Shown in pieces: positions 1-59,937 of a DNA stretch of 59,937 nt. The notes beneath the pieces were generated by a model. That model was not told the DNA's origin and did no database searches. It saw nothing but the letters and a program-made list of their open reading frames with translations. Position 1 is the stretch's first letter, and every line of letters starts with the position of its first letter. A program made the position numbers and the translations under genes. The stretch comes from a virus. Lineage: Duplodnaviria > Caudoviricetes. The DNA lies in the IMG/VR virus record IMGVR_UViG_3300009512_000015, positions 1-59,937 of that record. One strand, written 5' to 3'.

Positions 1-387
1 CGTTAGCCCATATTCTAAGCAACGGCTTGTTAAGAAAAAAGCCTTTTTAAGATTGCCTGAAAAAGTCGGTCTTTCTATACTTTCAAATGCATTTTTTTCT
101 TCATCAAACCAATCTAAAAACAAACGCATAGCTTCTAAAATAGGCGTTTTGCCTTCTAAGTAAGATAAATTTTGAGCTTTTAGCCAACTAAGTGTTAGCT
201 TGTCTGTACTAAAAGAATTTCCATAATTTTCATAAGAAGCAACATCTACCTGAACAAAAAATTCTTTGCCACTTAAATCTGATATTGCGCCTATCTCAAA
301 AATTTTAGCACTTGGCCCCACACCCATTGTTTCTAAATCAAGGTGCAAACTATCTTCTATACTCTCTTTGCTGTGTTTATTAGACAT
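1..387 (-). CDS. 3'-5' exonuclease/exoribonuclease, DEDD family (DUF5051/Rv2179c-like), truncated by window edge
   Basis: Absent from the ORF track because it is open to the edge. Manual translation from ATG at 387 gives MSNKHSKESIEDSLHLDLETMGVGPSAKIFEIGA, matching the DLET-x-G...I-x-x-IGA start of this family. The expected IWAN(G) motif at positions 1-16 is in a different frame. Confidence 0.7.
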   Translation of the reverse strand, partial: MSNKHSKESIEDSLHLDLETMGVGPSAKIFEIGAISDLSGKEFFVQVDVASYENYGNSFSTDKLTLSWLKAQNLSYLEGKTPILEAMRLFLDWFDEEKNAFESIERPTFSGNLKKAFFLTSRCLEYGLT

Positions 388-417
388 TTTGTATTTTCTC
401 TTTTTTTTAAATGTTTA

Positions 418-1425
418 TTAATCGTCTTCAAATATTTCATCAATAAGACCGCCTAAGTAAGACTCATCAATCTTATCTCCTTTAGTGTGCGTTTCATTTA
501 TTTTATAAATTAAATCAGCCATATAACTGTGATCAACACCAATTAATTGCTCACGCAATATAGGGATATCGTTAAGGTCTATGTTGCTTATTTGAAACAT
601 TATCTTAAGCATTTGACCAGCGGTTATCCTCCATCCGCGATTTATAAATTTTCTAGTGCGAAGAATAGATGCAACAGGATATAAACCGCCCTTATATATA
701 AGTGTTTTTGTCAAGATAGCTTCAAGAGCTTCTGGCGGAAGAACTACTTCATTTGTACTGCTACGGTAATAGCACATACAATGTGCAAAATCATAGTTAT
801 CGTGTATTTTATCAGGCTCTCCGTGAAACCTTATCACTAGCTGAATCTTGCCACTAAGCGAAATTGCGTTATTTGTAATATAAATAGGTCTATATTTATC
901 TTTTTCATCTAGACTTTTTTCAACAAGCTGCTCAGCTCCTTGTAAAACAGCATCTTCAACACTGTCTCTGCCTGCAGCCCAGCCGGATTTATACGCATTT
1001 GTTTCTGCATTATCTTCCAACACAGACAATGTTCTCGAAATAACGTCACTAATAGTTAGGTCATTTTCATCTTCAGTAGCAACACCTTCCGATTGCATCC
1101 AAATAACAATACGATCTTCTTCTTCGCCTCTTATATTCATTATTTTTTCTTCTTTAACTTTCGGCGCTGATATCAACCGTGGGTTAAGCTCGTTAAAAAT
1201 ATTTGAATAATACTCTGCAACTTCTTTTGCTATTTCTTTATTCTCAAAATAAATATCATAATCATTAGGCTTTTCGCCAAGTAGCATTGAAGTTATAGCG
1301 CCGCCAGTTACAATTGAATTTTGTTTAACTCTTAATCTAAGGCCTTCATCTGTTATGCTGTTATACCAGCTGTTTAATTTTTTACGTATAACTTTTTTAA
1401 TTGTAGATTTTTTCATTCCTGTCAT
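418..1425 (-). CDS. Pol-beta-superfamily nucleotidyltransferase-like protein
   Basis: VTGGAITSMLLGEKPNDYDIYF matches the hGG...D-x-D catalytic motif of CCA-adding/poly(A)-polymerase-type NTases; later YDFAHC. Confidence 0.65.
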   Translation of the reverse strand: MTGMKKSTIKKVIRKKLNSWYNSITDEGLRLRVKQNSIVTGGAITSMLLGEKPNDYDIYFENKEIAKEVAEYYSNIFNELNPRLISAPKVKEEKIMNIRGEEEDRIVIWMQSEGVATEDENDLTISDVISRTLSVLEDNAETNAYKSGWAAGRDSVEDAVLQGAEQLVEKSLDEKDKYRPIYITNNAISLSGKIQLVIRFHGEPDKIHDNYDFAHCMCYYRSSTNEVVLPPEALEAILTKTLIYKGGLYPVASILRTRKFINRGWRITAGQMLKIMFQISNIDLNDIPILREQLIGVDHSYMADLIYKINETHTKGDKIDESYLGGLIDEIFEDD

Positions 1426-13501: not shown

Positions 13502-13562
13502 TTTTTACTCCAAATTAAATTTAATAATATTTACGTTTAAACTCCCTTAAAAGGGTTAAATT

Positions 13563-13641
13563 AACGAGCAATTGTTTGTAAAAGTCTAGTAACCATAGCT
13601 TAATTTATGTTAAGCTGTATTTTAACTAAAAGTTGCTCGTT
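13563..13641. repeat. long imperfect intergenic inverted repeat
   Basis: AACGAGCAA (13563-13571) and TTGCTCGTT (13633-13641) enclose AGCTTAA (13597-13603) and TTAAGCT (13610-13616). Confidence 0.7.
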
Positions 13642-19052: not shown

Positions 19053-19087
19053 TTTTAATACCCCGTTAGTTACTGTTATTTTCTATA

Positions 19088-19282
19088 TCATATAAGATAC
19101 TGCTTTTTCCGTGTTTGTTTTTTAATAGTTACTATACTATAGACGTCTCTATTGATCTTGCAAGCGTTAATTGCTTTTTTATTTGAATGTGCAAGTGTCC
19201 AAAATGTCTTGATAAAGAGATCATCTGGGCCTGATACGTATTGTACACCATACCAAGAGCTTTTCTCTATAGATTCAAGCAT
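19088..19282 (-). CDS. hypothetical protein
   Basis: ORF track; overlaps the upstream stop. Confidence 0.55.
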   Translation of the reverse strand: MLESIEKSSWYGVQYVSGPDDLFIKTFWTLAHSNKKAINACKINRDVYSIVTIKKQTRKKQYLI

Positions 19283-21283: not shown

Positions 21284-21289
21284 TCACTA

Positions 21290-21493: not shown

Positions 21494-21577
21494 AATAAAG
21501 TACCTTCTCAGAATTAATAAAACGATATCTCTTTTTGGATATCATATAAGATACCCTATTTCCCGCGTTTTAAAACG

Positions 21578-21904
21578 CTAAACAGTCCTTTGAAAATGAG
21601 GCTTGTCTTTGAACTTTCGCCAGAACATGCCAGCTTTATTTTGGTCATTTAAGCTTTCCCAATACTTTCCTAATTCACAAGGGTATATTAATTTCCCGTC
21701 TTTAGTAAAATGCAAATCTACTGCACACTTTTTAAGATGCATTGAGTTCATTGTTTTTGAGCGACCCATTGCAATATACCATTTTTGCTGCTCAACTGTC
21801 CTGAACACCTCACCAGTCCTAACTTCATAGCCTAATTCAAAAGCTTTAATCATTAGTTTAACCATGTCTCTCGTAAATAGTTCTTGATGCTCTCCTAATT
21901 TCAT
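21578..21904 (-). CDS. Endolysin, peptidase M15 family (L-Ala-D-Glu peptidase-like)
   Basis: FRT..QQ, SMHLKKCAVD (S-x-H-x6-D) and DKPHFQ Zn-binding motifs. Confidence 0.88.
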   Translation of the reverse strand: MKLGEHQELFTRDMVKLMIKAFELGYEVRTGEVFRTVEQQKWYIAMGRSKTMNSMHLKKCAVDLHFTKDGKLIYPCELGKYWESLNDQNKAGMFWRKFKDKPHFQRTV

Positions 21905-22437: not shown

Positions 22438-22668
22438 AGTATATCCTCTTTCGGGTAGGTCTACCACCTCTACCCTCTACCTCTTTGAATAACTGCTAGT
22501 AACCTTAGTGCGTTCTGGGGTGTCTTTTAGTTACTCAGGAGGGTTAGGTATATAAAGGGGGCCATAAATGGGTTAATGTAACGGGAGCCGTTAACAAGTT
22601 TGGCTTATTTGTTTATTTTAAAAATATTAAAAACAATCGCAATAGCGTAGCTGCCTGTGAGCCGCAAA

Positions 22669-23241: not shown

Positions 23242-23312
23242 TTATTTCTCCTTTTAAAAACAACTAGACTGCTAGCTTGCAAAGCTGTTTAGCTTTAATC
23301 TTTTGATTGCTA

Positions 23313-36600: not shown

Positions 36601-37819
36601 CCCAAAACAAGAGCTGTAGAAGCAGCAGTTGTAGCACTTAGTTTAGAAAAACTTTCAGAAAGGCCATACGTTGAGTTTTTCATTTCTACTAAATTCTTTG
36701 AAAATTTGCTAAACCAGCTGTTGCTTTCTTCTACTAGGTCAGGTACATAAGAATTGCCTACTACATCCATATACAGTTCTTTAAAATAACCACTAATTTT
36801 GGAGGTTGCTGACTTAACAATATTTGCGCCTTTTGAAAGATCAGGCATAAAACTTTTTATGTCAATTTCTCCAAAAAGCTTTATAGGTTTAAAAATATTA
36901 ACCTTGCCAGCAAGCGATCTAAACAAAATATCAACAGAAAGTAAAGTTCTGGCAATTTGACTTCTTATGTCTAAAAACCAAAATTGAAAAGTTTTAGAAA
37001 AGTTATAAAGAGACACGCCCATGTCGTTTATTTTTTCAGCAAGACTACCGAGGCCACCTCTATCTCCAGCCTTACGAACCTCTTTAAACAATGCTAAAAA
37101 GCCTGTTTTTAAGTTAGTAAAAGCTTGACCATAGGTTACGTCTGTTTTTGCAAAACTTTCATCAATTGCACCGCCCATTTTAATAATAGCTTTAGTAATT
37201 CTATCAAAAGTTAAAAAGCCTTGAGCGCCTAGTCCTCGTAGTTCTCCGACTGATTTGCCTAAGCCTTTTGCTAAAGCATCAGCAAACGCAACGTTACTTT
37301 CTAAAACAGTTCTTAATTCATCACCATGTAATTTACCTGAAGCAAGACCTTGTCCTAGCTGCAGAGAAAATGAGAAAACTTCTGACTGGACTGCACCAGC
37401 AATAGCAAGAGTCTTAACAGAGGCTTCTGTAAATTTTGCAATTGTTTCTTGTGAGGCAGCAAATCGTCTACCCGATATTGCAACTTTTTGATAAAGTGTT
37501 GCTGTTGCTTCAAGATTTGCTCGAGACCTTACAGAAATATAAAAGCATCTCTTTGCGCTTTGTTAAAAGCTCTTTGACTCTCTGTGGCTACTTTCAGTTT
37601 ATTGTCGATACTAGTAAGTGTATCGCTATATTTTGTAAATTGAGAAAAACCTGCCCCTGCTGCGACAGCGCTTAAGAGTCCTGTTGCAAATCGAGAAAGT
37701 GATCTAGTGCTGGAATCCAATGAAGTTTTGATACCGTCTACACTACCTCTCAATCTTTTGAGGTCATTCTGAGCATTCTTCGAATTGGAAACCGTGTCAA
37801 TTACTAGTGCCATTGTCAA
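30618..37819 (-). CDS. Tape measure protein (~2400 aa), interrupted by a 1-nt frameshift near 37540
   Basis: The 96-aa ORF 37529-37819 continues in another frame as ISVRSRANLEATATLYQK...LQLGQGLASGKLHGDELRTVLE (tape-measure N-terminal domain signature), in frame with ORF 30618-37178. Ala/Gly-rich helical body. Confidence 0.9.
31393..31517. repeat. 60-nt tandem repeat (~2 copies plus partials) in tape measure
   Basis: Lines 31381 and 31441 are nearly identical; encodes GLLSGIGDMFKPSDEAGEGG twice. Confidence 0.9.
32965..33857. repeat. identical 41-nt direct repeats in tape measure (32965-33005 and 33817-33857)
   Basis: TTAGATAACATTGCTGGTATTTTATCATCAGTAGGGCCACC occurs twice and encodes GGPTDDKIPAMLS; a third diverged copy lies at ~30870-30965. 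Confidence 0.9.
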
Positions 37820-41103: not shown

Positions 41104-42285
41104 TTAGCCGTGAAATACGGGAAGAATACCCAGGCTAAGAGCTGAAGAACACTTACGCACCCAACTACCAGTTGTAGCTACAAGTCCGTTAGTTACATCA
41201 GTTGTTGCTTTAGCAACTGTACTCTCAACAGCATAAGCATATTCTGCATCGCTTACAAACTTATCTTTAGAGCCCATCCATGTATAGTGAGCAGGGTGCA
41301 ATACGTAGCCCCAACGATACCAGATTTGAGTTGTACCACCACCTTGATAAGACGCTGCTGAACGCTCAATTTCAACATCATTCTCAATAGAAAGATGCTC
41401 CATTGCTACAGCACCTGGCAATACAATAAATGAAGTTTTAGTACCAACAATATCAACACCACTACCAGAATTTACTTTAGTCAATTGGGCAGTAGAGAGT
41501 CCTTGGTTTGCACGAGTTTGCAGCAAACGGAACTTTCCTTGAAAAATTGTATTAAACTCAATATTGCCATCTTGAACACGGTCTTGATCAACAAGATTAG
41601 CTGAACGCAAAGACGCATATACTTCAGGTGAAGTAACAAGATAAGCCCAGTCAGGCTCAAAATCTTTATAGGCCATTCCAAAAGCTTGTAAGAAACTTTC
41701 TGCTCGGGCTGCACCCATGTTTGCGGCTGTAGATGCTGAGACTAGCGGGTTGTTTCCAAGATCGACATAAAAGCCGTATTTAGAATCAGTAGGGTCGTTA
41801 GTAAAAGTTTGACCACCAAGACCTGTTCCGCCAGCAGCTTGACCTGCGCCATTCAACACTTCAGAGATAGCTACACCCTTGAGTACTGAAAGAATGCCAT
41901 TGTGCTCGTCTTGCGCTTGAGTTTCAGCAAGATCTCTTGAAAACTTTTGAAGCTCGTCATCTTGAGTTACAAGGGTTTTCAGATTTACTTTCTCAGCACC
42001 ATGAGTACGGGCTGTCTTGATATACTCAAGATAACCTGTAGCAAAGCTAGACAGACTGCCGTTAGTTGCATCGGTTAGACTCGCTGTGTTAACAACTTGA
42101 GTAATCGGCTTTCTCCAACGAAGCTGTCCAGAATATGTTTCACCAACAACATCAATATCAGGATTTGCAGCAACGATATCTGTTCCTGAGAGTTTCTGAG
42201 CACTAGTATATGCTTCATCGGAATATACGCCAATTGCTTCTTGCAGTGCATAGTTTGTTGCACCACCAACGTTATTTCTTAACAT
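41104..42285 (-). CDS. Major capsid protein
   Basis: 393 aa after the scaffold, AAAGGAAG RBS, GGGTTQIWYRWGYVLHP coat-protein-like motif. Confidence 0.85.
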   Translation of the reverse strand: MLRNNVGGATNYALQEAIGVYSDEAYTSAQKLSGTDIVAANPDIDVVGETYSGQLRWRKPITQVVNTASLTDATNGSLSSFATGYLEYIKTARTHGAEKVNLKTLVTQDDELQKFSRDLAETQAQDEHNGILSVLKGVAISEVLNGAGQAAGGTGLGGQTFTNDPTDSKYGFYVDLGNNPLVSASTAANMGAARAESFLQAFGMAYKDFEPDWAYLVTSPEVYASLRSANLVDQDRVQDGNIEFNTIFQGKFRLLQTRANQGLSTAQLTKVNSGSGVDIVGTKTSFIVLPGAVAMEHLSIENDVEIERSAASYQGGGTTQIWYRWGYVLHPAHYTWMGSKDKFVSDAEYAYAVESTVAKATTDVTNGLVATTGSWVRKCSSALSLGILPVFHG

Positions 42286-42296
42286 TATTACTTCCT

Positions 42297-43001
42297 TTAG
42301 TTTCTATGAAGGGATTTTCCCTTTCGTTGAATTTTGCCAGTATCAATATCGTTAAGAACTTTAGAAAGAGGTTGTTGAAGTGCGTTTAGTGTATTGCTAA
42401 CACTACTACCAGGGGCAGGATTGCCGCCTCCAGAAGATTTCTTAGCTTTCAACAAAAAGTCGTTTTCAGGGTCTATAATAAAAGCCTGAACCGCTTCTTC
42501 AATACTCTTGCCTGTTCTTTTATCTACCCAATCCCCTGTTTCGTTACGTATAAGTGTATCTGAAATTATACGTTCTGCGTTATTTGCTGCCCTTGCGTTA
42601 GCAAACTCAACTTCACTAAAAGCATGTCCAATATCCTTGTCACGCGTCAACTCAATGTTTCGCTTTTCAAGAATTTCTGATCTAGCTCTAGATTGTGCGA
42701 GTTCTTGCTCGGTAGCTTCTTGCAGTTTACCTGAATCCTTTAGTTGCTGTATCTCAGCGTCTTTAAGCTTTTGCTCAGTTTCTTGTACTTTGGCAAGAGC
42801 TTCGTCACGCTGTTTAGCCATTCTGTCCATGTTGTCTTTCATAGGCAAAAGAGCTTCTTGTACCGCTTCATCTAAATCAGCCTTAAGAATAGATGGTTGT
42901 TCAGAGTCACCGGTTAGATCAGCAGGGGGATTTATATCACTTGGCTTAAGTTCGCCAGCAGGTGTATCATCAAGGTTTGGGTTTATATCTTCGTCTGACA
43001 T
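42297..43001 (-). CDS. Capsid scaffolding protein
   Basis: Acidic N-terminus, long coiled coil, SSGGG near the C-terminus; start reassigned to ATG 43001 after AAGGA. Confidence 0.8.
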   Translation of the reverse strand: MSDEDINPNLDDTPAGELKPSDINPPADLTGDSEQPSILKADLDEAVQEALLPMKDNMDRMAKQRDEALAKVQETEQKLKDAEIQQLKDSGKLQEATEQELAQSRARSEILEKRNIELTRDKDIGHAFSEVEFANARAANNAERIISDTLIRNETGDWVDKRTGKSIEEAVQAFIIDPENDFLLKAKKSSGGGNPAPGSSVSNTLNALQQPLSKVLNDIDTGKIQRKGKSLHRN

Positions 43002-43110
43002 TTTGATTTTCCTTTGAGTACAACTCAATTAATTAAAGACACAGCCTTTTTGTATGTTTCACATGCGTCACTCTCTAATTTCGCGCGTGGGTTAAGAAAA
43101 CGGGGAGGTT

Positions 43111-46100
43111 CTAACCAACCCCATACCAAGCTTTATCTGACTTAAAATCGTCAAATACTTCTTCTAATACAGCTTCTTTATCTAGTATATCTTCTTGTTT
43201 TAAAAGCTTACCCCCAACTCTGGATTTGCCAGCTACAGGGATAAGACCTATTTCTATTGCTTCTTCAAGGTATTGATCATACAGTCTTTTAGGTAAACCT
43301 CGAGAACGCATTTCATTTAAAACAGCTTTTATTACATTTGTATTAAGACTCTTTGCAAAAATTTTACGTAAGGCGTTTCTGCCTATTTGCATATCTGCAA
43401 TATTAGTGAAAAAAGCGTCATGAATAGTTGAGGTTGGAACTTTGTTTTCTTTACCCCATAAATGAAATTGTTTAACAAAAGTAGCATCATTCGAGTGGTT
43501 GCCGTTTACCGCAAAAGCTGTTCTAGCTTTAGTTGCGTCAGCAATATCGTTAATATTACCTGAGTCATTCCATAAAATTTCCCACCACGCTGCTTCGCTT
43601 TTTTGAGGGACTTGTAAAACATTGTTTACCCATTCACCATCTTTTGTTTTATAAATAAGCCTTTCTTCAAATCTTTGTGTAAAATTTTGTTCTATAATTT
43701 TTCCATCAAAATTCACCCAAGGCACATTAGTCCAGTCTTTTGGCAACGTATTTGCTGTAGACTCTAGTACTCTTATCTCTGTGCCTAATTTTGCTTGTTT
43801 AATAAAATCTATTTTGAAAATTCTACCACCAGTTCTTCTAGATAATGAATCTTCAACACCATAAATAATATCAGCAATACTGCTATCAGGGTTATAAAAA
43901 TTAAACTTTTTTAAAATCTCTTCAGTAATATCTGAGCCATCTTTAATGCCTAGCGCTCTTGAAATAATTTTAGGCAAAATAATCTTTTTCTGTCGCTTGC
44001 CTAACACAATTGTTTTACCAACTTGTTTCCAGTCCCAAGAAGAGCTAGAAGGCTTTGAATTTATTAAAAAATCTTCGGCCAGTCTACCAAAAAACTTAGT
44101 AAAATCTTTAAGAATAGGAGTTCTACTAGCTAAATTTTCGCTCATAATTTGAGCAATCAACCGAAAGTCTTGCGGTGTAACAACTCTATCATAAGCTTTT
44201 GAAAGATTTTCTACAAGTTCTTTAGTAGCGTTATCTAAGAAAAATAATTGTTCTAAAATATCATCACCAGGGTCTATCCCTTTATTAAAAACATCTTTAA
44301 CATTTTTACGCAAAGCTCGAAGTTCATCAGCTGTGTCTTGATCAAATTTATCATAACGAGCAATTCTTGCTGATATTTCTGAAAGAACAACTTCTCTATC
44401 ACTAGCTCTTACAACAAGTGTATTAACATCTTTTCCTAAAACTTTTGATAACTTGCCTTCAACATTTAAGACACCTGTTCTTTCACCAGCGCCATAAAAT
44501 GTAACCATGTTTTGAGCCTTAGCTGCTTTTCTTAAATCTTTTTCAGTAAGACCTAGTTTTTCATTAAGCCTTTTAAACCGAGGGTCGCTGAAAGTTTCCG
44601 CAGCGATAACATCATACAATCGATTTTTTTGTTGAGTTGGTATGACATTCGATAGCTCTGCAAGCTGCTTGTTTTTTGTCGTGAGAGCAATGATTTGCGC
44701 TCCAGACGATGAAGCATCTTGCTCAAGGGCAAGCCTTGTCCTGTATTTTGATATTCGTTTAATATCGCTAAAGTCACCGCCGCTCCATTCATTGATCTTG
44801 GAGTATTCAATTGCAAAGCGGAAGAATTTACCCATCTCTTCCCCTTCGATTCTTGAGACAATAGGTGATTCGAGTATAGCCCGAATATCTCTGGGTTTAC
44901 CTCTGCGCATTTGATCCCCGATTTCAATAAGATCTTTACGCCATTTTTCTGATATTTTTTGTCGCCCTCTGATAGTGAGCGAATCAAGTCTTCCTTCAAA
45001 AAAGTCATCTAGTCCCCCAAGGAAAGATCCAACCTGGTCATTAAAGTTATTCCAACCACTGATACTTATTTCTTTTTCTGCAATTGTGTTTAGAAAGGGT
45101 CTGAACGTCTCACCTGATTGCGGCCCAATGAGACCTCTATCATAGATACGTGCACGATGGTCAACAAAGGGATTATTACTAAAGGCAAGATTTTCCTTAC
45201 GAAGGTATTCCATTGTTTTAAATCTTTCGTAAGCATCTCCTCTTGCGGCAATATATTTTTTATACTCATTGATTCCGTTATAAAACTTGGCTTTGCCTCG
45301 GTCGTCTTCAAAATAAAGCAATTTTTGAATAAAATCATAAAAGTCCTCATCTATTGTATATTGCGATTTAGCCGTCCAGTTTAAAGCGTCAGCCATATTA
45401 TCATCTATTAAGGAAGTAGGGAAGTTTCTAAAAGAGCTGGTAGAAGTTATTGGAATCCCTGTATCAAACTGTAAGCCTAGCTTGTTTTTAGCAAAATAAG
45501 TTTTAAAGCCAGCTCTGAAAATTAATCGATTTCTCTCTTCAGTTACAGGTATTCTTAAACCGAGGTCTACAGCTCTTGTTAATTTTGAATAAGCTTGTAT
45601 ACGTGGGTCTGTAATCCTAATATTGTAAGAAAGAGTGTCATAATACGGGCCAAAGTACTGTCCAGAGTTTCTGCTTTTCATTCTTCTCTTTTGAACACCA
45701 AAAGTTTCAATTTCATATAAATTGTTATTAGAATCTAAAAGCTTTACGCCAAGACGATACCATTGATTTCTTGACCCGTTCAAGTTAGCAGAGTTGTAAA
45801 GATCTCTGCCTAACTGTACAGCAAGCTGATCGCGATCTGGAGTATCAGCAAGTGCTAAACGTCTGGCAAATCTTTCATAAAACTGATCAAGTTCATTATC
45901 AGCTAACCTAGATCTTATTATCAAAGGTATATTAAAATCAAAAGTATCTCTAAGTTCTTTTGCTATCTTAGGAGCTGTTCGTACTTCCCAGTTATTCTTG
46001 CTAACTATATTATCAATAAACTTAGCTTGTAAATCTTTTAACATTACTGGGCCCAGTACAGGGTCAATATAATTACCATTAAGTAACTTTTTGAGAACAT

Positions 46101-47730
46101 CAGAATCTTTACGCAGTTGTGTTTCTAAAGAATCAGAAATATTCATAACATCAAATTTTATTTGAGATTGAGATACAGCTTTAAAATTAACCCAAGATTC
46201 ACCATCACGCCTATACCTTGTAAACAGGATTCGTAAGTTATCTACAACAACTGCTCGTTCATTAACACTCATTTTTTGTGCAAGCGAATTGCTAAACTTT
46301 TCAATGTATTCTTTATCTTTTAGTTTAAGTAAAACACTCTCTTTTACTAACCTTAGGTTGTTATTTAAAACAGAAGGATTTGGTGTAAACATTCTTGTGT
46401 CTTCATAACGGCTAGTTATTGGATTAAAAATTAATTGATCTTCTCTAGGCGGACTTTGCAATACGCGTCTTTTTTGAGAACGTTTAGTGCCTATTAAGTT
46501 GCCTCTATAGTTTGTTGTTGAAAGAATACCATCAAGATCTTTAGATTGTAAGAGATAATAATCTCTTAAGGTATTAGTCATTTTTACATCGTTAAGTAAA
46601 TCTTCAGGCCTTGCTGCACCAATTCTCATTGCATCTAGCTTTTCTTTAGCAACAGCAAATCTTTTTGTATCAGTGTTTGCTGTAAAAGAAGAATCAGTAA
46701 GCTTCCTTAGCTGGTTAATGCCGATATTAGCCCCACCAACTCCTTTAAATTCTTTAGCAGATAGCTGTCCTTTTCTAAATAATTCTACTTTTTGATATTC
46801 TCCCAAATGTTTTAACTGCACATCAGGAGACTGCCTTGTTAGCCATATATTATACGGCTCTTTAAGTGCTGTCTTACCATCATAAAAGTTTTGTTCTTTT
46901 CGGCTCAAGCTTCCTAAGTTTCTTTTTCTGATTTGACTGACGTTATCGAGAGTGGCAAGGTCGGCCCAGGCTTTGAAAACAGGTGTAGTTGTGCTACGGC
47001 AATTATAATGAGCGGGAGGAAGATGAATAACATCGTCAACATCATATATATTACCATCACGCCCTGAGCAGATAAATGAAGTTCTTGAATCAAGCACTGC
47101 AACATATTGCCATCCTTCTATTGCTTTTTCATTGGCTTTGTAAACTTCTCGGTCAGCCTGTGCAACAACAGATGTAACAGAAGTTGTCACTAAAGCGCGA
47201 GAATTGTTCCTTGTTATTTTTGTAGACTTTCTTACAATACGCGCTATTTGGTTAGTGCTCATACCTTCAGCAATTCCGCGTCTTATTACTTGCTCAATTC
47301 TGCGTGTTTCAGTCTTTGCAATACCTTTCCAAGCCGGTGAAAGTGCCTTGTCTCCGGCCAGAGTGCGCCGTAGTACAATTTCTTCGGCAACGCTAGGGTT
47401 CGCTTTAGCGGTTCGCCAAAGCTTCCCTATGGCACGCTCTGTTGTCACATAAGCATGGTTTAATTCGTCTGAAGCTAGGTCTAATAAAGATCTTTTTGAA
47501 ATCTTAAAAGCTTCAGCGGCTGTTTTATTAGACTCGCTGGCAAGTGCTGTACGTAATCTAAAAAAGCCTCTGTTTGAAAACTTTGCGTCTCTTATTAGTT
47601 TATCAACACGAACCCGATGACCATTAATCTCTAAATCAACTTTATTGCTTAAACGTTTTTCATAAAGTCTAATCATTGCAGACCTGTCTAGTTTTTCGTC
47701 AAAGACTTGTGTATTTACATTAATAGCCAT
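43111..47730 (-). CDS. MuF (SPP1 gp7-like) head protein fused to a T7-type RNA polymerase; putative virion RNAP
   Basis: N-terminal GWQYVAVLDSRTSFIC...DG...PPAHYNCRST (MuF). C-terminal FVDHRARIY, motif A EQDASSSGAQ, motif B RKAAKAQNMVTFYG, NGNHSNDA, motif C IHDAF. Confidence 0.92.
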   Translation of the reverse strand: MAINVNTQVFDEKLDRSAMIRLYEKRLSNKVDLEINGHRVRVDKLIRDAKFSNRGFFRLRTALASESNKTAAEAFKISKRSLLDLASDELNHAYVTTERAIGKLWRTAKANPSVAEEIVLRRTLAGDKALSPAWKGIAKTETRRIEQVIRRGIAEGMSTNQIARIVRKSTKITRNNSRALVTTSVTSVVAQADREVYKANEKAIEGWQYVAVLDSRTSFICSGRDGNIYDVDDVIHLPPAHYNCRSTTTPVFKAWADLATLDNVSQIRKRNLGSLSRKEQNFYDGKTALKEPYNIWLTRQSPDVQLKHLGEYQKVELFRKGQLSAKEFKGVGGANIGINQLRKLTDSSFTANTDTKRFAVAKEKLDAMRIGAARPEDLLNDVKMTNTLRDYYLLQSKDLDGILSTTNYRGNLIGTKRSQKRRVLQSPPREDQLIFNPITSRYEDTRMFTPNPSVLNNNLRLVKESVLLKLKDKEYIEKFSNSLAQKMSVNERAVVVDNLRILFTRYRRDGESWVNFKAVSQSQIKFDVMNISDSLETQLRKDSDVLKKLLNGNYIDPVLGPVMLKDLQAKFIDNIVSKNNWEVRTAPKIAKELRDTFDFNIPLIIRSRLADNELDQFYERFARRLALADTPDRDQLAVQLGRDLYNSANLNGSRNQWYRLGVKLLDSNNNLYEIETFGVQKRRMKSRNSGQYFGPYYDTLSYNIRITDPRIQAYSKLTRAVDLGLRIPVTEERNRLIFRAGFKTYFAKNKLGLQFDTGIPITSTSSFRNFPTSLIDDNMADALNWTAKSQYTIDEDFYDFIQKLLYFEDDRGKAKFYNGINEYKKYIAARGDAYERFKTMEYLRKENLAFSNNPFVDHRARIYDRGLIGPQSGETFRPFLNTIAEKEISISGWNNFNDQVGSFLGGLDDFFEGRLDSLTIRGRQKISEKWRKDLIEIGDQMRRGKPRDIRAILESPIVSRIEGEEMGKFFRFAIEYSKINEWSGGDFSDIKRISKYRTRLALEQDASSSGAQIIALTTKNKQLAELSNVIPTQQKNRLYDVIAAETFSDPRFKRLNEKLGLTEKDLRKAAKAQNMVTFYGAGERTGVLNVEGKLSKVLGKDVNTLVVRASDREVVLSEISARIARYDKFDQDTADELRALRKNVKDVFNKGIDPGDDILEQLFFLDNATKELVENLSKAYDRVVTPQDFRLIAQIMSENLASRTPILKDFTKFFGRLAEDFLINSKPSSSSWDWKQVGKTIVLGKRQKKIILPKIISRALGIKDGSDITEEILKKFNFYNPDSSIADIIYGVEDSLSRRTGGRIFKIDFIKQAKLGTEIRVLESTANTLPKDWTNVPWVNFDGKIIEQNFTQRFEERLIYKTKDGEWVNNVLQVPQKSEAAWWEILWNDSGNINDIADATKARTAFAVNGNHSNDATFVKQFHLWGKENKVPTSTIHDAFFTNIADMQIGRNALRKIFAKSLNTNVIKAVLNEMRSRGLPKRLYDQYLEEAIEIGLIPVAGKSRVGGKLLKQEDILDKEAVLEEVFDDFKSDKAWYGVG

Positions 47731-47741
47731 CAGGTTGTACC

Positions 47742-49301
47742 TCAGTTATCTAATGACCTGTCAAAGTCATTTAAGTCATCGTTACCTCGACTTATCAGAG
47801 CGTCACTGGCAATTTCTGCCTTGCCGTCTTCATCGTCGTAGTCCGGATCCACGATATCATTGCTTTTGAGTATTTGTAGCCATATGCTTCTAGGCACAAG
47901 CCCGTTTTCATACCACTCAGTAGCAAGTCGCAGCCAGTCCGCTCCAAGAGGAACTGGTGAAAAGTCTTCAGTTAAACTAAATTCGATTTCTCTGACTTCA
48001 CAATCTACGTCATATTTCCAGTTAACCATAAAACAGATTACTTGGGACATGATATTGCTCACACGCTCATTGAGACTACCTAACTGGGCAGTCTGTGCAG
48101 CGTTTCTAATTTCTAAAGCAATTCCAGATTGTGACACTTCGGGTGTAAGCATTCTTACACCAAGTTTAGCCATTTCTTCGATATTAGCAGCAATTGCTTT
48201 TTCCATGTCGCCCAGTGCATCTGTAGGAGTGGCGAGTATGTCAGCTTTTGCATCTTTTGGTAATTTCCACATACTCCCTAAACCTGATTCAACAATTGCA
48301 TCAAAATCATCAGAGTTCATATCAGAAGTAATATAAGGCGTGTATGTCGCGGCACCATATAGAAGATGGTTGCGACGTGTAACTTTGTTATATAAAGCTT
48401 TTTCTTTAGCAACTAAAGAAGACATCATAGGTTCAGCAGGTTCAACGTCACCATTAGCAGGCCAAGCAGGAATAAAAGTAAGTCTTTCTCCGTTTTTATA
48501 AAAATTATCTAGTGTTTCAACAACTTCATACCCTGATTCTAGTTCCATAAAAAGTCTTATTTGATACAGACCATTAACAATTTCGTGAACCCATATTGCT
48601 GGAATTTCTTCGTCATGAAACTCGTTATCAGGGTCTGCTTTATTTACAATACCCTGTACTAAAACTCTTTGCAACTCTTCCTCACCTAGTGTGTTGTTTC
48701 CGATTTTCCAGTTTATAACATTTTCGGCTGTCCAAAGCACAGGATATGGCGATATTTTTTGTCTATCAGTTAAAGACAGCTTAGAATCTTCTGGTATAAA
48801 CGGGTGATCTACATAAAGCCAAGAGCGCGATGTCTGCATTTCTTCCCATAACATTTTATCAAGAAAAGAAGTAAGTGAATTACCTTCTCTGCTAAAATTA
48901 TTCATTATCCAGTTATAAGCTTCTTCAGGCACTTTTTCAGGCAATCTTAAGACAGGCTTTTTTCTTAACAAGCCGCTAACTAACATTTTTGCAAAAATGT
49001 TACATATTCCAGGCAACTCAGCTTCTTCAATTAAAAAAGAATATTGCTCGAAAGTCATTTTAGATGAAAAAGGTATAAGTATTCTACCCTCTCCACCAAC
49101 CAAATCAAGATCGTGTTCTTTAACTTTTCGCTCGCCGCCTAGAATAGCCCTGTTTTCAGACCAAGTTGTTTCAAGTGCAATATAGCGGTCAACAGGGTCT
49201 TCAACACCCCTGTTACCTGCATTTTGCATATGTCCAAGCTTTGAACTACGTTTAAGATGGCTTGTGCTTGTACGAACCACCTTTTTCTCAGGGAGTCTCA
49301 T
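47742..49301 (-). CDS. Portal protein (DUF4055-type)
   Basis: 519 aa upstream of MuF and scaffold; AENVINW, LTFIP, MAKLGVRML, SQSGIALEI. Confidence 0.85.
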   Translation of the reverse strand: MRLPEKKVVRTSTSHLKRSSKLGHMQNAGNRGVEDPVDRYIALETTWSENRAILGGERKVKEHDLDLVGGEGRILIPFSSKMTFEQYSFLIEEAELPGICNIFAKMLVSGLLRKKPVLRLPEKVPEEAYNWIMNNFSREGNSLTSFLDKMLWEEMQTSRSWLYVDHPFIPEDSKLSLTDRQKISPYPVLWTAENVINWKIGNNTLGEEELQRVLVQGIVNKADPDNEFHDEEIPAIWVHEIVNGLYQIRLFMELESGYEVVETLDNFYKNGERLTFIPAWPANGDVEPAEPMMSSLVAKEKALYNKVTRRNHLLYGAATYTPYITSDMNSDDFDAIVESGLGSMWKLPKDAKADILATPTDALGDMEKAIAANIEEMAKLGVRMLTPEVSQSGIALEIRNAAQTAQLGSLNERVSNIMSQVICFMVNWKYDVDCEVREIEFSLTEDFSPVPLGADWLRLATEWYENGLVPRSIWLQILKSNDIVDPDYDDEDGKAEIASDALISRGNDDLNDFDRSLDN

Positions 49302-49669: not shown

Positions 49670-50368
49670 TTAAGAACGCTCTTCAAATGATTCTGCTAAA
49701 CCTCGCAGGCGACTTGCAACCATTCTACATTTTGTTTGAGTATTAGCATCTAATCTGGCATCGCTATGTGTTGCAAAAGAACAGTAAGTAATAGCTTTGC
49801 TGTCTGTACCAACAAGCTCATACGTAGAAAGATGTACCCAAAGCGCTGCAGTAATACCTTCTACATTGTATACTGATTTTATTTCAGAATTATCTATATT
49901 GCTTGTATCTATGTAGATTTGCTGTGTTTTCATCAACTCTCTCAACTTAATAATATAATCATCATCAAGTTCAAAATGTATATAAGAAACAGGTTCTTGT
50001 GCAGAGTCTCTTATTTGATAAACAGCAGTAGTCCATCGAGGCTCTAAGTGGCCATTCCATGCTCGTAGTATCATAAAACGATCAAGGCAAGTTGACGACA
50101 TTAAGTCTACAATTGCTTTGCTTATTTCATCCCATTCTTCTACAAAATCAGGAAATTTTAACGCTGCTCTTTGAAAACGCATTTCTTGTTCTGCTTGAGC
50201 TGTTTTTCGTTTCTCTACTTTAACCCTAAGATAGCCTAAGAGTGAAGTAGAAAGTACGCTAACCATCCCAAAAACACCTATAATTATTTCTCCCCAATCA
50301 AGTGGCACTTTTAATCCCCTTGTATCTTTTAAATTGCGCTTGCTGTAATTGTCCAAACAAATGTCCAA
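49670..50368 (-). CDS. membrane-anchored hypothetical protein (possible GAF-like fold)
   Basis: N-terminal TM helix, coiled coil, then an alpha/beta domain; true start probably the GTG near 50308. Confidence 0.55.
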   Translation of the reverse strand: MDICLDNYSKRNLKDTRGLKVPLDWGEIIIGVFGMVSVLSTSLLGYLRVKVEKRKTAQAEQEMRFQRAALKFPDFVEEWDEISKAIVDLMSSTCLDRFMILRAWNGHLEPRWTTAVYQIRDSAQEPVSYIHFELDDDYIIKLRELMKTQQIYIDTSNIDNSEIKSVYNVEGITAALWVHLSTYELVGTDSKAITYCSFATHSDARLDANTQTKCRMVASRLRGLAESFEERS

Positions 50369-52533
50369 TCTTCACCAACTTCTCCGGCATTGGACAAGAA
50401 CGGAAGACCATACAAAAAGCCAATTAACGAATCCGCAGTTAATACCGTATCAGCTAAATTACTGAATGTAATTTTATTAGCAGCTCCAAACGACGGGTCA
50501 TTTACAGCAGTTGAGCCGCGAGTGTCATAAAGTTCGTACATAACTCTTTGTTCTGTTATATACGTGAGTCGGTTTGCTGATGTACATTTGCCAACACATC
50601 TAGCAATAATTTCATAAGGGATGCCAACTTGACTAGCAGTATTAGCGTTTGGAGAGTAGAAAGTATCAAACCCATATTGAACTGTATTAGGTGTGTTGAC
50701 TACCAAACTAACTGTTGCTTGATGTCTGCTGTTTGCTGTTGAAGCGCTAAGTCCACCAGAAGCATCAATTAACACTGGAGAAGTGTATGTTGCTGGCTTA
50801 ATACTTGTAAGCGAGAGAGCACCGTTCCAATTTAAGTTAGTTGTGTTTTCAGTATAAACTAAAGCATTTTGAGAAGTTTGCTTAGCGGCCCCTGTTCCAA
50901 AAGATATTCTTGAAGTACCATCATCAGGACAGCGTATGTGTATCCCAGAATCTCTGTTACCTTGGCCTATTATAACTTGTGTTTTTACTGGGCCAATGTC
51001 AACGCCTTCATTATATTCTGCGCCAGCAAGAAAAACCATCTGTTTCTTATCAGTTGAAACTGGATTACCTATTTCAAGTGAAGCTTCAGAGCCAACACCT
51101 ATTTTTAAAGTTTCAGTTTCGGGCGTAGTAGTATCCTGTGCCGCAAATATTGACAAATTCTTTGAGGTGTTAATCAGTACTAAAGATGAAGCATCAATTG
51201 TATCTATTACAAAATCAGCCACTTTTGAAGTATGTGATTCAAACCGCATATAAGCATTATTTGCAACAGTTACGCGACCAGTTATTGCTGCAACCGTTGC
51301 AACAACAAGCGCTGTTGTGCCAATATGAACACTCGGGCTTGTCGTTGAAAACTTTGTAGAATTGTCAGTATAAGGCGATTGTACAAGTAAACGATTTTTA
51401 ACAGAATAATATAGCGAATCAGCTGCAGCCGTTTGGCTTTTTGCATATATATCAGAGCCAATTTGAGATGCAAGGTTTGTTGTTAAAAGATATTGTGGGT
51501 GTGGGTCTCCTGTACTGAGTCCTTGTAAACCCGCATGATCTACAATAATTCCGTTTTTAGTACCATTGCCAGGGCCCTTAATTGCTATCTTAGCAGCTCT
51601 AAAACCTATATCAACTAACTCCATAGGGCCAAAGTGCCCATAAACATCAAGAGCAGGCAGCCCACTAGTAGATACAATGTGAGTATAATCATCAGATTGG
51701 TGAAGAATATATTCGGTGTTCTTTGAGAACCGATAGGACATGTTAGTCACGACAAGGGACGCATCTATTCTTTGCTGAGCGTATTGATGAAGAATGACTT
51801 GTGATTTATTTTTTTCAAGAAAAAGCCCTTCATAACGCTTTCGCATGACGTCAAAACTATCAGCATATCCTTGCGCCGTAACTTCATTAATTTCTGTTTC
51901 GCCATAAACGGATGCTGAACCAGGTACCGAATTTGACTCACCTTGAATCCAAAGGAAAACATCAACTTTTGATACTATTCCTGATAAATGAGAGCTAGCA
52001 AAAGCAGCGCTAACAGCGTTTCTTAAATAGATATCAGCAGTCGCATTCTCAGCCCAGTAAGAAATAGGTCGGCCATTAGCGGAAACTTCAATAAGATAAA
52101 CTTTTCGACCAGTAAGCTCATTTAGCTTTCTTGCACAAGCAATACCAATAGACCCTACACCGCCTTCACGATAACCTACATAAACCGATGAGTCAGCTTG
52201 TTGGCTCGGCCAGTCACCTTTTGCAGGAGTAGTAGAGTCTTGAGATCTAAACATGAAATTTGCATTAGATCCGTCAGAACACCAATTATATACATCAGGG
52301 TTTGGAAACCAACGATCAGCAATAGGTGCCGTGCCATTTATCGGGCTAAAGACATCGAGCGGCCATACGGCAACGCAGTTGCTTTGCCCCGTAGCAACTA
52401 TAACGATTGGCTCATCCTCTGCTTTATAAGGAAAGGCTAAATGCCCCATTTGTTTTAATTCTTTAAAATTACCGTCAACTTGTTCTGTTGTGAGCGGATT
52501 TGAAGTATCCGCCCTGTATATTATATTTGCCAT
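50329..52533 (-). CDS. Fibre/appendage protein with SGNH O-acetylesterase (SASA/CE6) domain
   Basis: N-terminal R...PLT..QVDGNF anchor; ATGQSN (catalytic Ser), WIQGESN, D-x-x-x-H (DVYGHF); beta-rich C-terminus. Confidence 0.75.
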   Translation of the reverse strand: MANIIYRADTSNPLTTEQVDGNFKELKQMGHLAFPYKAEDEPIVIVATGQSNCVAVWPLDVFSPINGTAPIADRWFPNPDVYNWCSDGSNANFMFRSQDSTTPAKGDWPSQQADSSVYVGYREGGVGSIGIACARKLNELTGRKVYLIEVSANGRPISYWAENATADIYLRNAVSAAFASSHLSGIVSKVDVFLWIQGESNSVPGSASVYGETEINEVTAQGYADSFDVMRKRYEGLFLEKNKSQVILHQYAQQRIDASLVVTNMSYRFSKNTEYILHQSDDYTHIVSTSGLPALDVYGHFGPMELVDIGFRAAKIAIKGPGNGTKNGIIVDHAGLQGLSTGDPHPQYLLTTNLASQIGSDIYAKSQTAAADSLYYSVKNRLLVQSPYTDNSTKFSTTSPSVHIGTTALVVATVAAITGRVTVANNAYMRFESHTSKVADFVIDTIDASSLVLINTSKNLSIFAAQDTTTPETETLKIGVGSEASLEIGNPVSTDKKQMVFLAGAEYNEGVDIGPVKTQVIIGQGNRDSGIHIRCPDDGTSRISFGTGAAKQTSQNALVYTENTTNLNWNGALSLTSIKPATYTSPVLIDASGGLSASTANSRHQATVSLVVNTPNTVQYGFDTFYSPNANTASQVGIPYEIIARCVGKCTSANRLTYITEQRVMYELYDTRGSTAVNDPSFGAANKITFSNLADTVLTADSLIGFLYGLPFLSNAGEVGEDWTFVWTITASAI

Positions 52534-52979
52534 TATCCATTTACCTTAAGTGTCCATATTAAAGTTACAGAAGAAGTGACAGTTTTTGTTATAGTTCCTG
52601 TAAGAAGCCGAGATATCATTACACCGCCAGTTTGTAAATTAAACAACCCAGCTTCTTCTATACTTATTGCGGTAGCTGGATTACCAGGGCTAAACAATGC
52701 TGTGTACTGCGCTGTATCGCCATTAATAACTGTACTTGTCACGGCAGCAGCAGCTTGATGCGAAATTAGTGTAGTGTCTGCTAGTGCAGCCGTTTGTGAC
52801 GAAGAGCCAATTCTAATATAGCTTGGTACAAGAGTGTCATTACTTATAAGCCTGTCAGCAATAAGCCCTTTGCCTCCGGTAACAATTAAGTTGTCTTTAA
52901 TAACTTCTTGTTCTAAATTCCCGTCTTTGTCGTGGACTTGAATAGTAACTTGCCCAAAAAGCTGTAGTGTATCTTTCAT
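52533..52979 (-). CDS. virion structural protein (fibre/collar-associated)
   Basis: DNLIVTGGK.LIA.RL...IGS...ADTTL...EAGLFN...MISR pattern typical of phage fibre-attachment proteins. Confidence 0.65.
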   Translation of the reverse strand: MKDTLQLFGQVTIQVHDKDGNLEQEVIKDNLIVTGGKGLIADRLISNDTLVPSYIRIGSSSQTAALADTTLISHQAAAAVTSTVINGDTAQYTALFSPGNPATAISIEEAGLFNLQTGGVMISRLLTGTITKTVTSSVTLIWTLKVNG

Positions 52980-52991
52980 GCAGGAGTACTC

Positions 52992-53525
52992 CTAAAAAGT
53001 GTTTAATTGATCCATGTAGCCTGCCTCAGCATAGCCAAGTTCAGCAAACCAAAATGTATAAAGTTTACCAGCGTCAGTGATTGTAACAAGCTCGGTAGGT
53101 ATGCTTTCGATTATTTCGAAATCAATATTATCTATAATTGCTGGCGTGTCAGCTATACGAACCGGTCTATATTCAGAAGCACCACTAAACAATGAATCTG
53201 ACATGTTTAAATTTTCATCAAGAGCTACTGATATAGAATAATTTAAACTGTCGGTTAATTCAATAGATTCGTTGTTAGCAACAGTCAACAAGGTTGTAAA
53301 GTCTTCAGATAATGAAGCTGTCTCATTAGGTGAAAAAGATTCGAAAAAGACTATTTCATTGTTAATTATTTCTGTAATTGCAAGTGCGTCGTATACATAT
53401 AAAGTATAACCTGCAGCCATGTATGTTGGGCTTGTAACAACATTTAATGCTTCTATTTTTGTAACAATCTTTACAGACTCAGGATTTTTTATTTGTGCTA
53501 CATACGGAATTATTTTATTTTCCAC
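52992..53525 (-). CDS. hypothetical acidic virion protein
   Basis: GAGAGG RBS with GTG start; repeated E-x-h-x-h-(S/T)-D units. Confidence 0.6.
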   Translation of the reverse strand: MENKIIPYVAQIKNPESVKIVTKIEALNVVTSPTYMAAGYTLYVYDALAITEIINNEIVFFESFSPNETASLSEDFTTLLTVANNESIELTDSLNYSISVALDENLNMSDSLFSGASEYRPVRIADTPAIIDNIDFEIIESIPTELVTITDAGKLYTFWFAELGYAEAGYMDQLNTF

Positions 53526-53536
53526 AGAAACCTCTC

Positions 53537-53890
53537 TTAGTTAGATAACCAAGGCATTCCAACAGAAACAGAATTTCGTTTTAAAAACTTAGCTTCAAGA
53601 GCCTTCTCAATTTTTTCTTGACTGACATCAGACTCGTAAACAACACCAGTCTCAGGATCAGTTTTACTAGCCCAGCACCAATTTAAAACTTGAGATTCTG
53701 TCAAGTCTTGATACGGAATATATGAATCTAATGAAGTATCTGGAGTGAAACTAACACAACCGAATAAGCTTTCTGTTATACCATTTTCAAATGCTACACA
53801 TTCCCAATAGGCCACAATAACACCTCCCGCAGCATCAGCGGGGGCTGTGTTGTATGTTAATGATGTTATTTTCCAATCAAATGTAGCCAT
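53537..53890 (-). CDS. tail-fibre-associated small protein
   Basis: Directly after the fibre; WKITSL...YIPYQDLTESQVLNWC...GMPW. Confidence 0.65.
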   Translation of the reverse strand: MATFDWKITSLTYNTAPADAAGGVIVAYWECVAFENGITESLFGCVSFTPDTSLDSYIPYQDLTESQVLNWCWASKTDPETGVVYESDVSQEKIEKALEAKFLKRNSVSVGMPWLSN

Positions 53891-53891
53891 A

Positions 53892-59364: not shown

Positions 59365-59808
59365 TAGTGTGTCCTCTGGTTATAACTTTTCTAATACAAC
59401 CGGACTCTCTTGCGAATCAAACCGTATTTCTTCAAGTTAGGATATGTTCTTGCCTCATTGTGGGTTAATTAAACGGCATAAGAAACCCAACAGAATCAAC
59501 AAAGTGTAAACGTGATTATTAAAGCGTCACTATCATTAAAAACTGGTAAAAGATAATTCAAAGAGACGTTAGGTTTGTAAACGCGTGTTGCTTAAGACAA
59601 TCTTAAATGTTTGTATTCAAGCAGCTATTGTAATAGTTTGTTTAAAAACCCCGTTAAATTAGCCCGCGAAAGGATATCTCAAAGGTTGAGAATTCAGGGA
59701 ATTGATTAGTACACATTGTACAATAAAAGTCAATTCCCGCTCTTGGATAAACTCAAGGTTGATTTTTAGATTCTTATTTAAATTTATAATCAAGGGACTC
59801 TTTTAATC

Positions 59809-59917
<109 letters not shown>

Positions 59918-59937
59918 AAATAAAATTATAATTTAAA

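Follow-up and report, generated by a model that had tools for sequence, protein, structure and literature searches.

The stretch of viral DNA analysed here, positions 1 to 59,937 of the IMG/VR record IMGVR_UViG_3300009512_000015 (Duplodnaviria; Caudoviricetes), is referred to at its full length of 59,937 nucleotides (nt) as the window. All genes of the window lie on the minus strand, and one of them joins, in a single open reading frame (ORF), a phage head protein of the MuF type to a T7-type single-subunit RNA polymerase (RNAP). A preliminary description made from the sequence alone had singled out this ORF and its named motifs, placed it in the portal-MuF-scaffold-capsid slot, and proposed that MuF carries the polymerase into the infected cell. 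The gene is open from its ATG through to its stop, encodes the 1539 amino acids (aa) that had been reported, and contains every one of the motifs at its reported place; its parts are as follows.

43111..47730, minus strand: MuF-RNAP fusion gene, open from ATG to stop, 1539 aa plus stop
46693..47730, minus strand: MuF / SPP1 gp7-type module, aa 1-346 (Pfam, AF2, BFVD, 13 invariant residues)
47068-47094, minus strand: MuF motif LDSRTSFIC
46993-47019, minus strand: MuF motif PPAHYNCRS
46087..46662, minus strand: helical middle domain, aa 357-548 (AF2 model, phrog_115, BFVD)
43114..46047, minus strand: complete T7-type single-subunit RNAP, aa 562-1539 (AF2, VIA, profile against PDB sequences)
45142..45165, minus strand: T/DxxGR-type motif VDHRARIY, with invariant R861
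44701..44724, minus strand: motif A, EQDASSSG, with D1005 equivalent to T7 D537
44485..44532, minus strand: motif B, RKAAKAQNMVTFYGAG, with K1071, Y1079 and G1080 equivalent to T7 K631, Y639 and G640
43408..43428, minus strand: motif C, TIHDAFF, with D1438 equivalent to T7 D812

Both families named in the preliminary description are found by Pfam on this one chain, above the curated cutoffs: Phage_Mu_F (PF04233) at aa 144-248 (E 1.2e-15, 58.6 bits, cutoff 29.6) and RNA_pol (PF00940) in two stretches, the better of which covers aa 1351-1477 (E 4.6e-13, 49.2 bits, cutoff 22). The PHROGs assignments run in the same order, with aa 1-370 matching head morphogenesis phrog_241 (7e-55), aa 60-550 covered by the minor head protein phrog_115 and aa 855-1085 matching RNA polymerase phrog_414 (7e-21). 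The protein can be assigned to the MuF family as well as to that of the T7-type RNAPs, and the structure models indicate that it consists of a complete long MuF protein, a short linker and a complete RNAP.

The polymerase half contains the N-terminal domain, palm, fingers and thumb and extends through to the last residue of the chain. An AF2 model of aa 400-1539, built from a 47-row alignment, has a mean pLDDT of 84.2 and a pTM of 0.80, and Foldseek matches it to mitochondrial and T7 RNAPs at E ~5e-19. When aligned to T7 RNAP with VIA-align (Z 30.4, root-mean-square deviation 3.4 over 528 residues), positions 169..1140 of the model correspond to T7 36..883, and aa 562-1539 therefore represent a whole T7-type polymerase with its N-terminal domain included. 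The same procedure gives a Z of 28.2 for the yeast mitochondrial RNAP and, for the proteins of phage N4, 19.7 (mini-virion RNAP, mini-vRNAP), 14.1 (RNAPII) and 12.9 (full-length gp50). At the level of primary sequence, phmmer with the single fusion protein yields 0 matches among PDB sequences, and only a profile, made from an alignment of 25 homologues, reached T7 RNAP (5.1e-27) together with mitochondrial RNAPs (~1e-17 to 1e-19); N4 vRNAP is not among the matches of the profile at E<=1.

Residue conservation was followed in 25 full-length homologues with 21-62% identity. The invariant positions of the polymerase half include R861, E975, D1005, N1028, K1068, K1071, Y1079, G1080, D1415 and D1438, so that the catalytic residues, intact according to the preliminary description, are indeed the same in 25/25 for the two aspartates, for the lysine and the Tyr-Gly pair of motif B, whose Tyr is the residue that selects rNTPs, and for the arginine of T/DxxGR. 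R1067, which aligns with T7 R627, is not conserved among the homologues; the adjacent K1068 is invariant. On the basis of the fold and of these residues, the polymerase half would be expected to be catalytically competent. In the same set Pfam recognizes MuF in 25/25 proteins and RNA_pol at E<=0.001 in 20/25, and between the window and a 74-kb relative described below the RNAP half is 65% identical and the MuF half 57%. An exhaustive phmmer search with aa 400-1539 against 1.84 billion representatives returned 158 clusters at E<=0.001 and did not reach ordinary T7-like or N4 polymerases. All hits of at least 1264 aa have an N-terminal extension, since every match on them starts at residue 373 or later; judged from sequence, the polymerase lineage is very divergent and appears always to bear such an extension among the complete chains sampled. 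Homologues of 1626-1699 aa (e.g. P0024, P0096 and P0106) have 90-150 extra residues at about aa 982-988, some 20 residues ahead of motif A, and neither an intein nor another Pfam family was found in the insert of the longer homologues (1626-2073 aa).

The MuF module is made of long helices and a conserved core running from LDSRTSFIC to PPAHYNCRS, and 13 of its residues, between T186 and P250, are invariant across the 25 homologues; selection thus acts on the MuF half as well as on the polymerase half. The AF2 model of aa 1-600 has a pLDDT of 85.6, with low-confidence linkers at 347-356 (disordered) and 549-561. Searched with Foldseek against BFVD, this model gives 100 matches at E<=0.001, those with a name being head morphogenesis or minor capsid proteins, and it matches the DSS3 homologue (1463 aa) at 2e-35; against PDB it gives no solved structure at E<=0.001. 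Stand-alone MuF proteins of 611-692 aa in BFVD align across all 600 modelled residues (~630-660 columns), and the middle domain is thus present in long stand-alone MuF proteins as well. Structure prediction had been proposed as a check in the preliminary description; its outcome is an RNAP half that folds as T7 RNAP and a MuF half that resembles minor capsid proteins. A complex prediction for the portal and MuF (aa 1-346), made with alignments, scored 0.00, a value that counts neither for nor against an interaction. A second MuF was not found by tblastn in either the window or the 74-kb relative, and any MuF protein assembled in the head would therefore bring the polymerase with it.

Relatives of the fusion are encoded at no fewer than 163 loci in IMG/VR. 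A word-indexed search with aa 600-1539 retrieved 448 proteins at E<=0.001, and the survey for the fusion suggested in the preliminary description, carried out on the best 120 of these 448, found both Pfam domains on one chain of about 1360-1700 aa in 115; in the other five, of 934-1128 aa, MuF is missing, and these could be fragments or split genes. A contig scan with the single protein yielded one locus, on a phage contig of 74,179 nt (the 74-kb relative) that is binned in a metagenome-assembled genome (MAG) and for which no host is indicated, and megablast of the window against phage records gave no match. Neither a misassembly nor a frameshift accounts for the fusion: in two independent seawater DNA runs from 2024, contigs cover 28/30 bins each of positions 42200-47800 with zero indels. 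Contigs from RNA libraries cover 9/30 and 8/30 bins of the fusion stretch and are uninformative on transcription, 5' ends or strand. The runs that hold DNA of the window are marine or seawater metagenomes, and the source labels of close homologues conflict ('Flavobacterium sp.' versus a Gammaproteobacteria MAG).

True homologues that share the two-domain chain and its synteny are encoded by the cultured roseophages DSS3_VP1 (gp108) and DSS3_PM1 of the Naomviridae (31.6% identity over 91% of the query) and by EBPR siphovirus 1 (gp47+gp49, 56% identity). Public annotation calls the homologues 'head morphogenesis', 'minor head protein-like' or 'head protein' only. Compared with DSS3_VP1, the identities are 39% for the portal, 42% for the capsid protein, 32% for the free RNAP introduced below and 29-34% for the fusion. 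The two DSS3 phages are described as having siphovirus morphotype and deoxyuridine-containing DNA (dU-DNA) (PMC8323127), and the siphovirus setting assumed in the preliminary description thus agrees with the morphotype of the closest cultured relatives. Neither the window nor the 74-kb relative yielded a homologue of the DSS3_VP1 dCTP deaminase (the second dU enzyme, the HD-type Dtm, was not searched), so the fusion is not tied to dU-DNA. The gene, intact in the window, is split in EBPR siphovirus 1 (L001, JF412302) by an 850-nt insert at 11190-12039 that encodes an HNH endonuclease, lies between V1076 and T1077 inside motif B and shifts the frame; the record annotates the one interrupted gene as three, 'head protein', 'HNH endonuclease' and 'hypothetical protein'. 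To judge from its sequence, the insert looks like an intron with a homing endonuclease. Homing elements typically hit strongly constrained sites, and the position exactly within motif B is therefore the signature of a homing element in such a site.

The genes around the fusion, in the direction of transcription, are listed here, together with a second RNAP gene located far downstream.

57605-58954, minus strand: large terminase (phrog_2)
50329-57605, minus strand: terminase-to-portal interval with two big receptor-binding-type genes
47742-49301, minus strand: portal (DUF4055)
42297-43028, minus strand: scaffold (phrog_206), listed start TTG
41104-42285, minus strand: major head protein (phrog_247)
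30618-37178, minus strand: presumed tape measure, a 2186-aa ORF, by size and position only (no Pfam family)
14415-16673, minus strand: free T7-like RNAP, 752 aa (PF00940 1.9e-61; phrog_414 1.5e-111)

The portal stop lies 11 nt ahead of the ATG of the fusion, and the DUF4055, phrog_206 and phrog_247 neighbours confirm the slot named in the preliminary description. Among the ORFs scanned from the portal to the capsid gene, none was recognised as a prohead protease. After the presumed tape measure come tail proteins, ~6 kb of small ORFs, the 752-aa RNAP, and replication genes that comprise a family A DNA polymerase, a 5'-3' exonuclease, a primase-helicase, a ribonucleotide reductase and a ligase. 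The 752-aa RNAP, presumed to be the non-virion enzyme, has its best phage matches in the annotated RNAPs of DSS3_PM1/VP1 and can hardly be aligned with the fused one (E 0.004 across 68 residues at motif C). A fused and a free RNAP are paired, with the gene order preserved, in the window, the 74-kb relative (whose free RNAP is 58.7% identical) and DSS3_VP1/PM1. Of the two genes in the terminase-to-portal interval, one encodes a 1237-aa fibre-like protein with an endosialidase-chaperone Peptidase_S74 end and the other a 734-aa esterase-like protein with a weak SASA esterase match. The position of receptor-binding genes between terminase and portal is unusual, and DSS3_VP1 has a 2575-aa virion protein likewise placed.

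Two classes of contiguous promoter-like motifs of 14-16 nt, termed A and B, occur in the window.

59462..59475, minus strand: class A, ahead of the terminase module
43089..43102, minus strand: class A, 9 nt past the fusion stop, ahead of the scaffold/capsid module
22570..22583, minus strand: class A, in the 201-nt gap that separates the tail module from the small-gene region
13553..13566, minus strand: class A, ahead of the replication module
21539..21554, minus strand: class B, GTATCTTATATGATAT, 4.9 kb upstream of the free RNAP gene, within the early small-gene region
19085..19100, minus strand: class B, a second copy, 2.4 kb upstream of that gene

The class A motif, CGTTNNNTTAACCC, has four exact copies, each of them intergenic and on the coding strand; shuffled sequences contain a mean of 0.88 copies with one mismatch allowed, and by arithmetic ~0.03 exact copies are expected. 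Coding-strand copies stand at the equivalent module starts of the 74-kb relative. The site behind the fusion gene was surveyed in 68 of 80 related loci, the other 12 ending before or just past the gene's end: class A (consensus CCCGTTAAATTAACCCAGG) directly follows the fusion stop in 37/68 and its core only in 6/68, and neither motif nor core occurs within 160 nt in 25/68, many of which have an extra ORF inserted. Opposite-strand copies are also present, one in the window at 59652-59665 (1 mismatch) beside long homopolymer tracts and one in the 74-kb relative at 4305-4290 beside its forward copy. In the first 50 kb of DSS3_VP1 (L002, NC_055826) there is a strong consensus, AATAGGKTRCGTTAAAGAGGGG, that has the CGTTAAA core in common with class A of the window and occurs in 11 coding-strand copies, 8 of them intergenic (for example ahead of PhoH, portal and gp101). 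The intergenic gaps of the early region (35.8-42.4 kb) of that genome contain no copy, and one is found there inside the endolysin gene. The available text of the DSS3 phage papers does not mention the AATAGGKTRCGTTAAAGAGGGG motif.

The class B motif, GGTATCTTATATGA, occurs exclusively in the small-gene region that precedes the free RNAP gene, with 2 copies in the window and 3 in the 74-kb relative. A scan of viral contigs with the class B 14-mer gave at least 120 stretches, most of them by chance, and a free-RNAP homologue is present in 14 of 120; in each of two further loci (L121 and L131) the motif is present twice, 0.9-2.7 kb upstream of the gene for the free-RNAP homologue and on the same strand. 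A related pair, GGCATCTATAATGA, at 35808 and 36255 of NC_055826, directly follows the tape-measure gene of DSS3_VP1, in a place equivalent to that of class B.

Taken together, we regard it as rather probable that the fusion is a virion-delivered RNAP. The idea gains strength from the lack of a second MuF in the tblastn searches, from a free RNAP in addition to the fused one, such as N4 and P23-45 also encode, from the two motif classes and from the conservation of the fusion down to 21% identity; two contiguous motif classes that accompany two single-subunit polymerases also characterise P23-45 (PMC10770324). The gene product would then be a bifunctional virion protein, whose N-terminal 550 residues, of the MuF/SPP1-gp7 type, would bring the chain to the portal within the procapsid, with the C-terminal 980 residues, the T7-type RNA polymerase, as cargo. 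On infection the fusion protein would be ejected from the head together with the DNA, pass through the long tail, regain its fold in the cytoplasm and begin transcribing the incoming genome without the host polymerase. The likeliest promoters of the delivered enzyme would be those of class B (GGTATCTTATATGA), in the small-gene region that leads into the gene of the free RNAP, and the latter could then transcribe the remaining modules from class A promoters (CCCGTTAAATTAACCC). What stands of the delivery idea in the preliminary description is its foundation, a complete MuF in the canonical slot fused to a complete and apparently active T7-type RNAP; packaging in virions, ejection and rifampicin-independent early transcription are the central steps that we infer.

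Several points weigh against such a scheme. A protein of 175 kDa must unfold to traverse a siphovirus tail, and the pairing of class B with the fused and of class A with the free RNAP is a candidate assignment. In the available text of the study of the cultured relatives, mass spectrometry covered nucleosides, not virion proteins (PMC8323127). Class B also fits a sigma-70-type layout (TTGCGG, 16 nt, TATGAT in the window), the DSS3_VP1 version contains a perfect TATAAT, and the gaps contain weak sigma-70-like sites, at 22642-22615 and 13647-13619. If class B is read in that way, the host RNAP could make the free RNAP, as in T7, and there would be no strict need for a delivered enzyme.

The sigma-70-like features of class B are what recommends an account in which the fusion is packaged and ejected and early mRNAs, that for the free RNAP among them, are synthesized by the host RNAP. 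The delivered enzyme might in that case serve to pull the genome in by transcription, a mode of entry known in T7 and N4, or to make primer or origin transcripts, and the opposite-strand class A copies at 59652-59665 and in the relative at 4305-4290 resemble promoter-driven origins. However, the entire 14-16-nt class B block is conserved, the would-be sigma-70 spacer included, while its flanks have diverged, and it is kept between phages whose proteins are 50-60% identical, a pattern more typical of promoters of single-subunit RNAPs. A scan for the sigma-70 consensus at 13000-23500 found 29 sites where 29.2 were expected, so that such sites are neither enriched nor excluded. We consider this account unlikely.

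Delivery by the virion would play no part if the RNAP half worked only in the producing cell, in late transcription or in starting DNA packaging at the portal (T7 RNAP helps to start packaging at concatemer junctions), with MuF as an ordinary assembly protein and the polymerase either cleaved off or an inert passenger. The location of the gene in the late structural module, with a class A motif and the scaffold gene directly after it, is compatible with this, but a free RNAP is already on hand for late transcription and the ORFs scanned from portal to capsid include no recognised prohead protease. Moreover, each of the 25 homologues sampled, with identities as low as 21%, retains the fusion, which argues that the physical linkage to a head protein matters; a role limited to the producing cell therefore seems quite unlikely to us. 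That the polymerase half could be catalytically dead, a DNA-binding or space-filling internal domain of the head, is suggested by its very divergent sequence, by the lack of phmmer matches among PDB sequences and by Pfam coverage of parts of it only. This is highly improbable in view of the catalytic aspartate pair, motif B lysine, Tyr-Gly and T/DxxGR arginine that remain invariant in diverse homologues, of a fold complete to the C-terminal residue, and of a conservation that, between the window and the 74-kb relative, exceeds that of the MuF half. An origin of the long ORF as an assembly chimera, or through a missed stop or frameshift between two genes, has nothing in its favour and a negligible probability, and is refuted by the two-domain chains among the best 120 homologues, by the IMG/VR loci and by the indel-free independent DNA runs, from which we conclude that the fusion is real.

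To our knowledge, virion-packaged RNAPs are found in few systems only, the N4-like podoviruses, jumbo phages, crAss-like phages and P23-45. In N4, gp50 is a single-subunit, T7-related RNAP that is carried in the capsid and injected to transcribe the early genes, and a second T7-like RNAP is encoded for the next stage (PMC5512222). The gp50 protein is described as having ~3500 aa, with the polymerase in the middle, flanked by an N-terminal region for injection and a C-terminal one for encapsidation, and with no MuF (PMC5512222). The fusion, in contrast, has 1539 aa, MuF at its N-terminus and a polymerase that runs to the C-terminus; it lacks the gp50 architecture, in agreement with the preliminary description, which had held it to be built differently from the N4 enzyme, and by the Z scores given above its predicted fold appears closer to T7 RNAP than to N4 mini-vRNAP or gp50. 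Virion RNAPs of the N4 type are said to be limited to N4-like phages (PMC5512222). In the long-tailed Thermus phage P23-45, gp96 is an RNAP fused to a virion structural protein that transcribes the pre-early genes, among them that of a second, non-virion RNAP, and the two RNAPs use two distinct promoter motifs (PMC10770324). That enzyme is of the two-barrel, cellular-RNAP-related kind and has a tape-measure carrier, whereas here a T7-like enzyme has a head protein as carrier. The logic of staging would be the same as in N4 (gp50 then RNAPII) and P23-45 (tape-measure-fused vRNAP then gp64), and by analogy the fusion may work like N4 gp50 and P23-45 gp96 while being a member of neither family.

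With T7 RNAP the fusion has in common the whole fold (36-883) and all the catalytic motifs. The T7 enzyme, however, is a free protein of 883 aa made after infection by the host RNAP, and the polymerase of the fusion has ~100 inserted residues and 560 residues of head protein in front of it. The SPP1 gp7 / Mu gpF proteins and their cargo fusions, among them polyvalent proteins and MuF polymorphic toxins, resemble the fusion in their N-terminal module, their portal-adjacent gene and the attachment of an enzyme as cargo at the C-terminus. It is established that MuF serves as a virion-association module for such cargo; published accounts describe it as a vehicle for delivering enzymes, and the cargoes they name are ADP-ribosyltransferases, RNases, 2H phosphoesterases, RelA/SpoT, PRTase, zeta-type kinases and VIP2 (PMC5512222; PMC7302621). 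The word 'polymerase' has 0 occurrences in the main text of PMC5576092, RNA polymerase and MuF are not mentioned in the DSS3_VP1 papers, and searches of the full-text literature, supplementary tables apart, found no description of a MuF-RNAP fusion. Delivery of a T7-like RNAP by MuF, which we hold to be probable, would be a route for which no description in print was found, and it would fit a known kind, that of N4 gp50 and P23-45.

We give an even chance to the broader proposition that MuF-RNAP constitutes a third, independently evolved class of virion RNAP, in which a T7-like enzyme on the minor head protein of long-tailed phages has its own GGTATCTTATATGA-type promoters, switches on a second RNAP and makes the phage independent of the host RNAP from the first moment. 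If so, a large and globally distributed lineage of marine phages, the dU-DNA Naomviridae included, would be independent of the host RNAP, and transcription by the delivered enzyme may also help to draw the genome into the cell. Marine viromes commonly contain this lineage, and transcription independent of the host may therefore be more widespread than annotation suggests. The fusion would add a structurally simple virion RNAP, a T7-type enzyme with a MuF carrier, it would widen the range of MuF cargoes from toxins and modifying enzymes to a core enzyme of gene expression, and the two-polymerase strategy would be shown as a case of convergent evolution. The idea is directly testable because homologues are encoded in cultured, non-pathogenic phage-host pairs, DSS3_VP1 and DSS3_PM1 on Ruegeria pomeroyi DSS-3. 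A T7-like RNAP that is compact, self-contained and very divergent, and that comes with a new promoter of 16 nt, could also serve as an orthogonal transcription tool.

Next to the fusion gene, a perfect hairpin with a TGT loop, TTGAGT-TGT-ACTCAA, is located at 43014-43028 (minus strand) just ahead of the scaffold gene's ribosome-binding site. Because the listed TTG falls within the hairpin, that gene probably starts further downstream. At least one such hairpin is present in 50/51 distinct related loci and two in 36/51, compared with 1/68 control segments; its stems covary freely (GAGT/ACTC, GAGC/GCTC, AGAT/ATCT, GGGC/GCCC and others), and DSS3_VP1 has GTAAGT-TGT-ACTTAC at the same place (L002, ~25680-25700). 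The hairpin has no match in Rfam and may be an element of the 5' untranslated region. N4, a podovirus, has hairpin promoters, and a role of the TGT-loop hairpins as general promoters of this style was rejected: there are 4 per genome (coding strand, stem of at least 5 bp; shuffle means 1.0-1.2), and only the one ahead of the scaffold gene is conserved in relatives.

Elsewhere in the window, Shine-Dalgarno-like AGGAG and GGAG sequences precede many genes (e.g. at 13.5k, 23.3k, 30.6k and 49.65k), and a gene for a SegE-like GIY-YIG homing endonuclease is located at 8352-8831 (minus strand) between those of the 5'-3' exonuclease and the primase-helicase. A scan of the window for tRNAs gave none, and Rfam at the gathering threshold gave 0 matches. 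Upstream of the terminase module, positions 59801-59920 contain homopolymer runs of ~52 T and 25 T (coding strand) with CCCTTTTTTGGTTGGTTGGAG between them, which may represent an origin, a genome-end region or a sequencing artefact. Finally, a segment of ~450 nt with low coding potential at ~19889-20340 (minus strand) contains two copies of a repeat, AGTTAGTCACG...CGTGCAACCAAA, which matches no Rfam family and each copy of which can form a stem (CACGG/CCGTG; CACGAT/ATCGTG).

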